DNA from: Thermoplasmatales archaeon E-plasma
GTDB lineage: Archaea > Thermoplasmatota > Thermoplasmata > Thermoplasmatales > Thermoplasmataceae
DNA length: 64,000 nt
Assembly (NCBI GenBank): GCA_000496135.1
Contig: KI542675.1
Span: forward strand, 612,030-676,029
Reading direction: 5' to 3'
A program made the translations under genes and the position numbers. The notes below the pieces were generated by a model. The model was given only the letters and a program-made list of their open reading frames with translations, did no database searches and was not told where the DNA came from. Positions 31,161 to 47,650 of this stretch are shown here, piece by piece (the first letter of the stretch is position 1; each line of letters starts with the position of its first letter).

Positions 31161-32516
31161 ATGATGCCCCTCAAGACCGAGGAGCACATAGCGGAGAATA
31201 TTCAACGCCCCGAACGGGATATAAACCTGAAGTCCATATCCCTACCATACTTTTATTACCTCCTGACGATTGATCATGACATGGGATTCTCGAACCTGAC
31301 GATCGAATACGAAAGAAAAATGCTGAGCAAGGAACCGATACCTGAGAATGTAAAGAAGGCAATTACCGGCTTCGTGGACGGTGACCTTATACTGGAGAAT
31401 ATAGGGGAAAGAAGGAGAATGAATTATTATCAGCGTCTAAGGGTTGCAGCAAGATGGATTCCCGATAACTTCCTCAATCCTTCCAAGGAGGACATTAAGA
31501 AAGTCATGATAAAGCTCAATGACGGATATTCTGAATGGACTAAGGACACTTACATCAAGATGCTGAGGAAATTTTACCGTAAGACACTTCCTAGGAAGAA
31601 ATTTGAAGCTCTGTTTGAGGACGTCAAGATAAAGCAGCCAAGGCAGAAGATCCAGCAATCGGATCTAATAACAGTTGAAGAGGTCAATGCCTTGATCGCT
31701 TCAAGCAATAATGCAAGGGACCGTGCCATATTTTCAACCCTTTATGATTCCGGGTGCAGAATCGGTGAGCTGCTGCTAATGAAGATAAAAAGCGCCAGGT
31801 TCGACAATTACGGAGCTGTGCTTGAAGTCCCGTTTGAAGGGAAAACAGGCACGAGACCCGTAAGGATCGTAGGTGATTCTGTGCCTTACCTGAGGGCATG
31901 GCTTGACAACCACCCCAGCAGGAATGATATCAATGCCCCTTTATTCTGCAATATCTCCGAAGGAATAAGGGGGAGGGCCATGACCTATGACGATGTGAGG
32001 AAGGCGTTAAGGGCGTCATCGAAGAGAGCAGGGATAACCAAACGAATATATCCTCACCTGTTTAGGCATACTAGGGCATCGATCCTTGCTTCAAGGGTAG
32101 CTGAGGCACCGTTAGAAGCGCAAATGGGATGGGTTCCCGGGACCAAGCAAATGGCAACCTATGTACACCTTTCCGGAAAGCAGACTGACACAGCCATTCT
32201 GAAGGCTTATGGCGTGGAAGTACAGGACAATGGCATAGCGGAACCCAAGCCGGTTAAGTGCCCCAGGTGCGGCGAAGCGAACCCCTCTGATGGAAATTAT
32301 TGCCGTAAGTGCTGGCTTCCCCTAACAATTGAAGCAACGCTGGAGCTTAAGGAAAGAGAGGACCACATAGAGAAGGAGCTGGAGAATAAAGGATTAATAG
32401 ATGAAAAGGTAAAGGCACTAATTGGAAACATGCCGGAAACTGAACGAACAGGGATTCTAACAGCTATTATACAGATGGCCCTAAAAGATAAGAAAACTCA
32501 GGAAATCTCTAAATGA
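31161..32516 (+). CDS. tyrosine recombinase/integrase with C-terminal zinc ribbon
   Basis: 451 aa; HLFRHTRAS...GW...TYVHLS catalytic box II region; CPRCG...CRKC ribbon; visibly more G+C-rich than flanks. Confidence 0.85.
   Translation: MMPLKTEEHIAENIQRPERDINLKSISLPYFYYLLTIDHDMGFSNLTIEYERKMLSKEPIPENVKKAITGFVDGDLILENIGERRRMNYYQRLRVAARWIPDNFLNPSKEDIKKVMIKLNDGYSEWTKDTYIKMLRKFYRKTLPRKKFEALFEDVKIKQPRQKIQQSDLITVEEVNALIASSNNARDRAIFSTLYDSGCRIGELLLMKIKSARFDNYGAVLEVPFEGKTGTRPVRIVGDSVPYLRAWLDNHPSRNDINAPLFCNISEGIRGRAMTYDDVRKALRASSKRAGITKRIYPHLFRHTRASILASRVAEAPLEAQMGWVPGTKQMATYVHLSGKQTDTAILKAYGVEVQDNGIAEPKPVKCPRCGEANPSDGNYCRKCWLPLTIEATLELKEREDHIEKELENKGLIDEKVKALIGNMPETERTGILTAIIQMALKDKKTQEISK
31205..31220 (+). 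repeat. attL-like copy of tRNA-Asp 3' end (inside integrase codons 15-20)
   Basis: 16/16 identity with 47635-47650; the next 9 nt match the tRNA T-arm at 6/9. Confidence 0.7.
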
Positions 32517-33042
32517 TTATCTTTCCTGATTTATTTTTAACATCTATCTCTAACACGCCTCCAAGTTTTTCAAGCGCATCTAAACCAAACAGGCATATCA
32601 TTTCTATCATTTCTTCTCCCCTTTGCACATACACCCCCTGCTTCTTTTCAATCTTCTTTTTTATATGGGATGAATGAACGGCAATTTTATCAAGGTTTAA
32701 ACTTATCGTGGAATTTCTGCTCATAACACTAATCTTTACTTCATTCGTTGTCGGAGTTTCCACAAACCCCCCTATTCCACCCACTCTCTCATTCTTAAAA
32801 GCTTTTTGATTTAGATATAGTCTTTCCGCCTCATCTGCAGTAATCGATGTTAAGTTAGAACCAGTATCTAAATACATAATTGCGTTGCACCACACGGTTC
32901 TATGTAACTTTCCAGGAATGTCGCCCATTTCATGCAAAGTTTTCTTTGTCAATATAACTGGAATTGAAAATAAGTTTCTCTTCTCATCAAATATTAAATC
33001 TATAACTTCCATAACGGGTTTCCTGATAATTAAAGGATCCAA
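32509..33042 (-). CDS. retropepsin-like aspartic peptidase
   Basis: 177 aa; YLDTGSNLTSI (D-T-G-S active-site motif). Confidence 0.55.
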   Translation of the reverse strand: MDPLIIRKPVMEVIDLIFDEKRNLFSIPVILTKKTLHEMGDIPGKLHRTVWCNAIMYLDTGSNLTSITADEAERLYLNQKAFKNERVGGIGGFVETPTTNEVKISVMSRNSTISLNLDKIAVHSSHIKKKIEKKQGVYVQRGEEMIEMICLFGLDALEKLGGVLEIDVKNKSGKIII

Positions 33043-33272
33043 AAAATGTTTTTGTCAGTTACTAGCTCTATGAAAACACCGTCAATGTTTCCGAATTTTT
33101 CCTTAGCATCTTGGTAAGTATCAGTGAATCCAATAACACTTCCATTATCAATTGCAACATATTTGCCCACGTGTTCCTTCAATTCATTGTACATACTGTT
33201 AGCTGCCTCATAATTGCGCTTAAATTTCTTAAAAGAGTTAATCACTTCATCTGGTAGTAATACATTTTCCAT
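33030..33272 (-). CDS. DUF5678-like small protein
   Basis: 80 aa; ...GKYVAIDNGSVIGFTDTYQDAKEKF... pattern; 13-nt overlap with the downstream peptidase gene. Confidence 0.45.
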   Translation of the reverse strand: MENVLLPDEVINSFKKFKRNYEAANSMYNELKEHVGKYVAIDNGSVIGFTDTYQDAKEKFGNIDGVFIELVTDKNIFWIL

Positions 33273-33361
33273 GATATCAGATAATTAAATAGATATAATA
33301 ATTCTTGCGTTCCGACCATGGTTAAAATTTTCAATCTTTCTTAAAGCATAGGGGGATAACT

Positions 33362-33673
33362 ATGCCAGGAAACACCAAATCAAAAGGAACATCCGGTAAG
33401 AAGGTAGCAAGAGGAAAGGCTGCTGTAAAAGAATATACAACAAAAAAGTGGAATAAAGCGGACAGTTCATTTCACATAAAGCTGAAACATGTCCTTGGCG
33501 GTGTTTCTCTGTTAAGCCTTCTTGCAGCATTTGAAGTGTTTTCAATCCCTGCTGTAAATGGAATTATAGATCTGTTCTATTTCAAAAGGTCCTATGCAGG
33601 AGCATTGTGGATATTTATGGCTGCACTTTCAGGCGGAGCTGCTTTCTATCTCTATGGAGAAGAGAAGAAATAA
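33362..33673 (+). CDS. small membrane protein A (Lys-rich N-terminus plus 2 TM)
   Basis: 103 aa; paralogous to 33816-34049. Confidence 0.5.
   Translation: MPGNTKSKGTSGKKVARGKAAVKEYTTKKWNKADSSFHIKLKHVLGGVSLLSLLAAFEVFSIPAVNGIIDLFYFKRSYAGALWIFMAALSGGAAFYLYGEEKK
33485..33561 (+). repeat. 77-nt segment duplicated at 33858-33934
   Basis: 72/77 identical by eye; flanking parts of the two paralogues are much more diverged. Confidence 0.8.
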
Positions 33674-33701
33674 TTATATAGAACGAGGGATTGGTTATTA
33701 T

Positions 33702-33815
33702 ATGAATGTTGAGAATAGGCAAGGTAGGCGAGGGATGAACTCCTACAATATCATTGGACTCATACTGATGGCCTTTGGAGGAATAGGGCTTCTTTGGGTT
33801 TTCGGTCTGCTATGA
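33702..33815 (+). CDS. 37-aa single-TM protein B
   Basis: MNVENRQGRRGMNSYNIIGLILMAFGGIGLLWVFGLL; the same architecture recurs at 34071-34172. Confidence 0.35.
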   Translation: MNVENRQGRRGMNSYNIIGLILMAFGGIGLLWVFGLL

Positions 33816-46277: not shown

Positions 46278-46466
46278 CTACTCCGCTTTAACTTCTTTTA
46301 ATGCGGAGACGTATTTCACATGCACACACTGATAAGATTTACACATCTCGCAGTAATGTTCCCTGTTGACAGGTTCAATGTCTATTACTGCTATCTGGTC
46401 TTTCATGGCATCTTGCAGAACGCAGACAACTGCTTTCCCTATTTCTCTCTGTTTAATACTTTCCAT
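46278..46466 (-). CDS. small Cys/His protein (CxxC...CxH)
   Basis: 62 aa; YCEMCKSYQCVHVKY resembles a SWIM-type zinc finger. Confidence 0.35.
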   Translation of the reverse strand: MESIKQREIGKAVVCVLQDAMKDQIAVIDIEPVNREHYCEMCKSYQCVHVKYVSALKEVKAE

Positions 46467-46487
46467 TCTTTATTACCTCCGCAATAT

Positions 46488-46742
46488 CTAAAGAGGATCG
46501 TGGTCCTCCGATAAACCGTCGATGACAATTTTTCCTGACCTTATGGCAGCAATAAAAGTGTCGATAACTTCCGGGGTATAGTCGCTGAGAATACCTTGTA
46601 TAATTTCTGATGTAAGGTCATATAAAGGATATGAAATGGTATCCTTCGTTTTGAGTATCTCCTGTATCGTTTCAATGTCTTTACGCAGCTGAGTAATCCT
46701 TTCAAGGGATGTCAACTGCAGATCAAGCTCTTTTCCCGTCAA
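46488..46742 (-). CDS. hypothetical small protein
   Basis: 84 aa; overlaps the upstream ORF by 20 nt. Confidence 0.35.
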   Translation of the reverse strand: MTGKELDLQLTSLERITQLRKDIETIQEILKTKDTISYPLYDLTSEIIQGILSDYTPEVIDTFIAAIRSGKIVIDGLSEDHDPL

Positions 46743-46962
46743 GTGAATCCCTCTTTGTTGTGTTTATCCCAGTTGCAACGAGCCTTTTTCTTACGCGTTC
46801 GGGAACAAGGCTCTCTAACCTCCCGAATACTCTTATGTTTCTCTTTATATTACCCATTCTATCACTTCCTTTCCTGGAGCTTAAGGTAGCTCCCTTACAG
46901 CCCCTAAAAAAATTGTGTACAACGATTGAAGAATTCACAGTTTCATTTTTCATGTTTATCAC
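46723..46962 (-). CDS. hypothetical basic small protein
   Basis: 79 aa; overlaps both neighbours. Confidence 0.35.
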   Translation of the reverse strand: MINMKNETVNSSIVVHNFFRGCKGATLSSRKGSDRMGNIKRNIRVFGRLESLVPERVRKRLVATGINTTKRDSLDGKRA

Positions 46963-47173
46963 TCCTGATCGGCATTTTATAGAATATTGGCCGAAAAGAA
47001 CCAGTGTTTGCTTTTTTAAACCCTTTGGACGATATTAACCCGAGCAATTCTTCCTTCTTCTGAGGATCATGGACTGATACCACAACAATTTTGAATTCCC
47101 TTTTATCAAATGTTAGTCCTGAGTCCCGTGGAATAATGTAAAATTCTTTATTCAAAAGCGTTTCAATAAACAC
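46943..47173 (-). CDS. hypothetical small protein
   Basis: 76 aa; first ORF of the run. Confidence 0.35.
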   Translation of the reverse strand: MFIETLLNKEFYIIPRDSGLTFDKREFKIVVVSVHDPQKKEELLGLISSKGFKKANTGSFRPIFYKMPIRSDKHEK

Positions 47174-47634
47174 TATCCCTTGTGATAGAATTAAGTGGTA
47201 ATATTAGTATCCCAAGAATTCCCTTCAGGTTATTTATCAAGATAATTAGATATGCATGGACACTTCTTCAAAAAATTAGTAATAAATTTTCCCTTAATAA
47301 ACGAATATGTGCGTATATCAAATGTTGTAGTCTCTTATTTATTCTGATAATAGTATATATAAAAGCAGTGACAGGTAAAGCTTAAACTTACATCGAATTA
47401 AACAAGTTTTCCACATACATGCATTAAACTTTTATACCTATGCCGGTGCCGCTGCGTTCACGTTGTCAAACGCAAGCTTGCCTTGGTTAATCGCGGATAT
47501 GGAAAGGTCACGTTCGTTCAATTTTAATTACTCTGTGGCAGCTCCGTTAAGGTCAAAAAATGACCTCCTTGAGTATATAACTGCAGTCATGAAACTAGGT
47601 AATATTCAGAGTAGGGATATGGAATTTTATTATG

Positions 47635-47650
47635 ACGCCCCGAACGGGAT
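47635..47650 (+). repeat. attR-like core (tRNA-Asp 3' end)
   Basis: Identical to 31205-31220. Confidence 0.7.

Follow-up and report, generated by a model that had tools for sequence, protein, structure and literature searches.

A probable integrative element of 16,430 bp at the tRNA-Asp gene of Thermoplasmatales archaeon E-plasma

What separates an oxidoreductase gene from purC in the genome of Thermoplasmatales archaeon E-plasma, and how did it come to lie there? We analyzed a 64,000-nucleotide (nt) window of this genome (contig KI542675.1, positions 612,030-676,029, forward strand, assembly GCA_000496135.1; unless another contig is named, coordinates below are those of the window), for which an earlier note had proposed a 16.4-kb integrated element bounded by a direct repeat of the tRNA-Asp 3' end, with housekeeping genes on both sides. 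Our analysis supports this interpretation: window positions 31221-47650 are very probably an integrative element that entered by site-specific recombination at tRNA-Asp(GTC), with the oxidoreductase gene to its left and purC to its right. The element has exact boundaries, is present in one strain and absent from another, carries an intact integrase and the two arms of an attP, and has an architecture in common with its relatives. It belongs to a known kind, the tRNA-targeted archaeal integrative elements of classical type. The locus is defined by the following features.

31205-31220, no strand: left core of the element (attL), which repeats 16 bp from the tRNA-Asp 3' end and forms the border between the chromosome (left) and element DNA (right).
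47635-47650, no strand: attR core, within the intact tRNA-Asp gene.
47636-47708, minus strand: tRNA-Asp(GTC), the only copy in the genome, unaltered by the insertion.

The bounding repeat is the 16-mer ACGCCCCGAACGGGAT, whose two copies, at 31205-31220 and 47635-47650, match exactly at 16 of 16 positions. No further copy is found in the window with up to two mismatches (shuffled sequences give an expectation of 0), nor in the whole genome (1.66 Mb, 8 contigs) with up to one, so that the dispersed repeat against which the earlier note had cautioned is not what we see: there are two genomic sites only. ARAGORN and Rfam both place tRNA-Asp(GTC) at 47636-47708 on the minus strand, where the note had put the right copy, and it is the single tRNA-Asp gene among the 44 tRNAs found. 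The right core consists of 1 nt past the tRNA, the discriminator base, the 3' acceptor strand and the start of the T-arm; its tRNA part is thus the last 15 nt of tRNA-Asp(GTC), and the insertion makes no change to the tRNA sequence. Past the left core a resemblance to the tRNA continues at 6 of 9 positions (ATAAACCTG versus TTGAACCCG), also as first described.

The unoccupied tRNA-Asp/purC locus that one would hope for in a close relative does exist. We searched for contigs encoding exactly the oxidoreductase to the left of the element (29990-31000). In several assemblies the same integrase gene (int) stands beside that oxidoreductase, while in the JGI metagenome contig L067 purC lies directly downstream instead. 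L067 matches window 23990-31227 at 99.4% identity over 7,238 nt and window 47635-53430 at 99.6% identity over 5,796 nt, and the two matches overlap in a single core copy only, with no DNA between them. Followed base by base, L067 runs along the left flank of the window to the core and then continues as its right side, the tRNA body, giving the order left flank, one core copy, tRNA-Asp, purC; the element arms on both sides of the core are missing. This empty site fixes the insert as window 31221-47650, exactly 16,430 bp and bounded by the repeat, and flank identities of 99.4-99.6% imply that L067 and the window come from strains of one species. An exact-protein look-up with PurC gave no match. 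Two genomes of the same genus, G001 and G002, keep both flanks and have different DNA beside tRNA-Asp.

We rebuilt attP in silico by placing a single core between the right and left arms, and found a perfect 13-bp inverted repeat flanking it. The parts of this site and the gene next to it are as follows.

47495-47634, plus strand: element-derived P arm, missing from the empty site.
47495-47503, plus strand: third half-site, on the P arm.
47574-47580, plus strand: TATA-like box on the P arm.
47611-47623, plus strand: GTAGGGATATGGA, the inverted repeat's left half, separated by 11 nt from the core that follows.
31233-31245, plus strand: TCCATATCCCTAC, the right half, separated by 12 nt from the core that precedes it and conserved in homologous elements.
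31251-31258, plus strand: TATA-like box TTTTATTA, some 27 nt ahead of the int ATG, with conservation in every close homologue.
31281-32516, plus strand: int, encoding a tyrosine integrase of 411 amino acids (aa) with the motif R..K..HxxR..W..Y and a C-terminal zinc ribbon (DUF7577/DZR), intact after integration.

The layout is as expected for a tyrosine recombinase, and the 13-bp repeats are probably its core-type binding sites; TTTTATTA would serve as the promoter of int, whose mRNA would then be leaderless. Immediately 3' of tRNA-Asp, a stretch of 24-45 nt is conserved in G001 and G002, in G008 (another genus) and in other genomes. We considered whether these nucleotides are chromosomal, which would contradict the boundary, and rejected this reading since they are missing from the empty site in L067; they belong, then, to the element-derived P arm.

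The integrase contains a PF00589 Phage_integrase domain (4e-18) with all catalytic residues visible in the translation. It is also matched by XerA/XerC/XerD models, its nearest solved structures are XerA of Pyrococcus and of Thermoplasma, and SSV1 Int gives no sequence match to it among solved structures. The open reading frame (ORF) itself begins at 31161 and spans 451 aa (31161-32516), with the core in codons 15-20, but this start has to be corrected. The 30 closest homologues are 406-421 aa long, 76-90% identical, and cover the last 88-91% of that ORF, which places the true start at M41 (31281), with the attP core 61 nt upstream. Moreover, the 44 nt between the upstream ATG (31161) and the core are also present in the empty site, so that they are chromosomal and the N-terminal extension of int is a by-product of the insertion. 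On the P arm, the core is immediately preceded by a TGA that is in frame with int, and this TGA is repeated in related arms. As a side effect, integration has joined a chromosomal ATG in frame to int via the core, creating the 451-aa ORF, and gene callers have accepted the over-extended version (450 aa in the public record). Judged from its sequence, the integrase is a classical, non-split ("type II", lambda/pNOB8-like) enzyme of XerA/XerC-like type.

We propose the following course of events. The attP of the element would have recombined with the 3' end of tRNA-Asp(GTC), that is its last 15 nt plus 1 nt, presumably under catalysis by the element's own tyrosine integrase (31281-32516) bound to the 13-bp inverted repeats around the attP core. 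Strand exchange would have taken place within the 16 bp of identity, yielding attL (chromosomal flank, core, P' arm, int) and attR (P arm, core, tRNA body) and leaving both tRNA and int intact. The cargo is a mosaic on a small backbone, made up of small ORFs, a three-gene module with an ATPase and a catalytic-domain-only recombinase and common to relatives in other Thermoplasmatales; two IS110 copies, a transposase remnant and a membrane/peptidase cluster have joined it. The ATPase module could serve replication or DNA handling of the free form, and the element may still be able to excise at present.

Is tRNA-Asp a landing site for this element only, or for a family of elements? Integrases 85-86% identical to that of the window are found on metagenome contigs in three different chromosomal contexts; when their upstream regions are aligned, similarity starts exactly at the core and runs through the P' arm into int, and the left flanks are unrelated. 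Contigs L059/L060 carry a partial core, then int, some 7 kb with unrelated ORFs and a tRNA-Asp gene (minus strand) 8.2 kb away, and share with the window int and the att arms only (about 75 nt of the P arm). G011, which belongs to another genus, has an int 59% identical to that of the window, with 13 bp of the tRNA-Asp end repeated next to it and the tRNA at a distance of 8.5 kb. P-arm-like trailers stand beside tRNA-Asp in about one third of the 30 family genomes inspected (L028-L057; at least seven genera); their parts, corresponding to window 47557-47634, are a TATA-like box at -60 (often), a GGTAGGGATATGG-like box and a TTTTAT tract. These trailers suggest that tRNA-Asp is a recurrent landing site, although they do not amount to proof. 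Beside tRNA-Asp in G001, other non-core DNA extends over at least 31 kb and includes a 90% identical copy of the small recombinase described below. A search of 32 kb beside tRNA-Asp in G001 and of 20 kb in G008 brought no distal att copy to light. None of the 167 other species genomes in the order has the P' arm pattern, with up to 3 mismatches allowed, so that close relatives are to be found only in metagenome assemblies.

Two further observations concern this locus and its integrase. Several genomes contain partial tRNA-Asp copies elsewhere (trailer plus the 3' 53 nt), for example at G008:C4:106572-106675 in inverted orientation. On contig L064 (1974-11917) an 85% identical integrase is found in another context with a defence-rich cargo (KwaA/KwaB, GmrSD, Vsr and an NgoPII-type restriction enzyme), which indicates that the same integrase module also moves defence islands.

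The cargo between int and the right core is laid out as follows, where IS stands for insertion sequence.

32509-33272, minus strand: overlapping genes for a DUF5678 protein (80 aa) and a weakly retropepsin-like protein (177 aa).
34172-35117, plus strand: small recombinase cassette, with the gene at 34485-35117 (210 aa, catalytic domain only; PF00589).
35119-36195, minus strand: orphan of 358 aa with an N-terminal membrane segment and no family match.
36696-38419, minus strand: three-gene module encoding a 168-aa protein, a 136-aa protein and a P-loop ATPase, conserved in related elements.
36696-37532, minus strand: the P-loop ATPase of this module, 278 aa, DnaA-like by PHROG and Zot-like by fold.
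38439-39578, minus strand: full-length IS110-family transposase, the single genome copy.
39983-40858, plus strand: second IS110-family transposase, C-terminally truncated.
41430-44316, minus strand: membrane cargo, comprising a SpoIIM-like polytopic protein, an M48-like peptidase and a 178-aa membrane protein.
44396-45800, minus strand: frameshifted transposase-like remnant with a MULE/IS256-like motif, weakly supported.
45816-47173, minus strand: five or six small ORFs, of which those of 85 and 84 aa are common to the L076/L079 elements.

The two tyrosine recombinases of the earlier note are borne out by PF00589 matches in both, and of its three IS-type elements or remnants two are clear: both IS110 genes have the DEDD_Tnp_IS110 and Transposase_20 domains. 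The third is the frameshifted MULE-like remnant, whose assignment is weak; it has a longer paralogue, 45% identical, elsewhere on the contig, and the paralogue has a weak MULE transposase match. The note had also counted about ten small ORFs with zinc-finger-like motifs, a number that does not hold, since Cys-pair motifs are present in only 2. Small membrane proteins are encoded between the retropepsin-like pair and the small recombinase. Most cargo ORFs have no useful match in Pfam, PHROGs, NCBIfam or PADLOC, and no capsid genes were found in the element. In the small membrane-protein region, 33485-33571 and 33858-33944 form an 87-nt direct repeat, 91% identical, consistent with a local duplication. 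On the minus strand, 41246-41366 gives a sub-threshold match to group II intron D1-D4 (34 bits versus a gathering score of 49), and the surrounding 40936-41389 has an 82% identical copy at G000:C3:884225-884691.

The small recombinase travels as a unit. Its cassette of about 950 bp is 81-84% identical in nucleotides and 90-92% in amino acids in three otherwise unrelated contexts (L080 7946-8894; L081 6420-7366; and L027, in G001, 6274-6994), the recombinase is better conserved than the neighbouring ATPase (69% aa), and the orientation of the cassette relative to the ATPase is inverted in the window versus L080/L081. The protein has weak NCBIfam matches to FimB/FimE-type invertases.

The ATPase has no Pfam match and no PDB sequence match. 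It does have DnaA-like counterparts: phrog_5484, annotated "DnaA-like replication initiation protein", is matched at 7e-10 with almost all of the profile covered, and a protein of Haloferax virus LSV-48N, a lemon-shaped virus, at 1e-9 with 29% identity over 74% of the length. In an AlphaFold model built from 27 homologues (pLDDT 75, pTM 0.70), the best PDB fold match is the Zot N-terminal domain (2r2a; E 1.3e-5) at low TM-scores of 0.37/0.50, and the viral fold matches include Inoviridae Zot proteins, ATV ORF286 and AMDV2_16. The "Zot-like ATPase operon" of the earlier note is thus defensible at the level of the predicted fold, and is not backed by any Pfam Zot match. Replication, or DNA handling or assembly, are candidate functions of the protein.

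The ATPase family comprises 40 clusters, essentially all from Thermoplasmatota-type metagenomes, and occurs in two contexts. The first is a set of small islands, L076/L079, which also have the 168-, 136-, 85- and 84-aa genes of the window, with 62-83% conservation of these backbone genes. The second is the larger L080-L083, in which the ATPase is the last gene of a long co-linear operon that also encodes a 788-aa PKD-domain protein, and the small recombinase comes next. Family searches recognized no structural virus proteins in the window element or in L082. A 71% identical ATPase homologue, P0140, is labelled Candidatus Parvarchaeum (ARMAN) in NCBI, which could be either a binning error or an element shared by a Thermoplasmatales host and its episymbiont.

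What speaks against reading 31221-47650 as an integrative element? Several observations do weigh on that side. The G+C content of the element, 38.4%, is the same as that of the genome, also 38.4%; the earlier note was correct in seeing higher values in int (46%) and the IS110 leaders (50%), the only parts that exceed the rest, but the element as a whole does not stand out. The two IS110 copies and the broken transposase fit long residence and decay. Homology of the left flank with G001 stops at 30998, and not at 31204 as the boundary would have it. Exact-pattern scans of assembled viral and metagenome contigs found no match to the attP junction or an excised circle; the conserved P' arm, scanned for in the same way, also gave none. 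Finally, the element has no gene that can be firmly assigned to replication initiation, a capsid or conjugation. The G+C parity and the IS load suggest long residence or a donor of similar composition. We read the element as partly decayed; it may still be able to excise.

If 31221-47650 is an integrative element, what was it when free? One tentative answer is a provirus, now defective, whose structural genes were lost to IS insertion and deletion; it would come from an undescribed lineage of Thermoplasmatales viruses with kinship to spindle-shaped (lemon-shaped) or pleomorphic archaeal viruses. This would account for the matches of the ATPase to phrog_5484 and to LSV-48N, where a small integrase lies two genes past the ATPase, and for the presence of ATV ORF286 and AMDV2_16 among its fold matches. 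In L080-L083 the ATPase, the 136-aa gene and the small recombinase lie downstream of the long PKD-protein operon, and in the window an IS110 sits exactly where that upstream operon would be. Among viral integrases, the nearest is encoded by Geoglobus acetivorans pleomorphic virus 1 (37.5% identity, 2e-55). However, no capsid, spike or other structural protein turned up in the family search of the window element and L082, the ATPase is the only BLAST similarity to LSV-48N, and the smaller relatives L076/L079 also do without the long operon, so that we hold a provirus to be conceivable rather than likely.

To a still-functional integrative plasmid, which excises, replicates via the ATPase module and reintegrates, with the small recombinase resolving multimers, we would likewise give well under an even chance. 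The integrase is intact with all its catalytic residues, the att cores match at 16 of 16 positions, strains whose flanks are 99.5% identical differ in whether they have the insertion, and the backbone genes are 62-83% conserved in L076/L079, all as such a plasmid would have it. On the other hand, the ATPase occurs in no PLSDB plasmid, no circular form was found among the assembled viral and metagenome contigs, no Rep, primase or helicase is recognizable in the element, and the IS load suggests decay.

Far less probable than either is that the tract is an ancestral island, lost in the L067 strain by chance recombination between fortuitous 16-bp repeats and with no part played by an integrase: a short-repeat deletion would give the same junction, but the left repeat abuts an integrase gene, the arms bear the 13-bp inverted repeat, independent elements with other cargo use the same core in other genomes, and the right arm is common to other elements and not to the empty site. 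The chance that the integrase is of the SSV-type ("suicidal") kind, with attP within its reading frame, is smaller still, and we reject this split-gene reading since, although the 451-aa ORF from 31161 runs in frame through the core (codons 15-20), the homologues begin at the equivalent of M41, the 44 nt before the core belong to the chromosome and occur in the empty site too, the P arm has an in-frame TGA just before the core, and the enzyme has HxxR, not KxxR, with XerA and not SSV1 Int as its nearest structures.

We return, then, to a site-specifically integrated element, and ask what it could mean more generally. tRNA-targeted integrase islands are textbook biology, and the element is otherwise what one would expect of them. 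The acidophilic Thermoplasmatales, for their part, have almost no genetic tools, and for this group the locus offers base-exact attB, attL and attR, a rebuilt attP and an intact integrase, the raw material for an integration vector. A single tRNA-Asp gene that serves as a recurrent landing site would also be a source of strain-level differences in acid-mine-drainage populations, and the conserved ATPase module may mark an unrecognized virus or plasmid lineage. More speculatively, and with doubts that outweigh our confidence, the window element, L076/L079 and L080-L083 might together represent one undescribed virus/plasmid lineage of acidophilic Thermoplasmatales, with the ATPase module and recombinase cassette as its core and a distant tie to lemon-shaped viruses, in which the zinc-ribbon integrase has made tRNA-Asp a family-wide hotspot.

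How does the element compare with known systems? Geoglobus acetivorans pleomorphic virus 1 (Pleolipoviridae, BK065156.1) has the closest integrase in a named virus, but the window has no counterpart of its VP3/VP4-like and Rep genes; the VP3-like and VP4-like structural genes that would mark a Pleolipoviridae provirus are not found, int alone being similar to GacPV1. Zot/pI of filamentous phages (2r2a) provides the best PDB fold match of the ATPase model, yet the TM-scores are low, there is no Pfam Zot match, the ATPase lacks a membrane domain, and no inovirus genes are present: the combination of a Zot with membrane domain and Rep, coat and pIV-type genes that marks an inovirus-like element is not found. 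LSV-48N (PP151251.1) has a homologous ATPase, and in both it and the window a small integrase-like gene follows shortly downstream; it differs in that no other LSV-48N gene is detectably similar and the window has no structural module. Of Fuselloviridae-like features, a DnaA-like (B251-type) ATPase is present; for the other, a VP1-like major capsid protein, no capsid family gave a match, but such proteins are short and divergent.

Among integrases, the SSV-type ("suicidal") enzymes of Sulfolobales viruses and of the Thermococcales plasmids pTN3/pT26-2 (PMC7253208, PMC8371274) are likewise archaeal, with tRNA targets and a core near the 5' end of int, but in the window attP lies upstream of int and the gene is not split, and neither an attP inside the int ORF nor an int(N)/int(C) pair is found. 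The nearest parallel is with the classical type II arrangement at tRNA genes, for example PYG1 of Pyrococcus yayanosii and the SNJ2 provirus (PMC8371274). The window element differs from these in its integrase family (HxxR, C-terminal zinc ribbon, tRNA-Asp target), its Thermoplasmatales host and its unrelated cargo. It shares with them a tyrosine integrase beside one att site, here with the R..HxxR..Y recombinase domain; a terminal direct repeat identical to the 3' part of the tRNA, of which the empty target site in a close relative (L067) holds one copy; variable cargo; and an int that remains whole after integration, its homologues starting from M41 and a stop lying before the core on the P arm.

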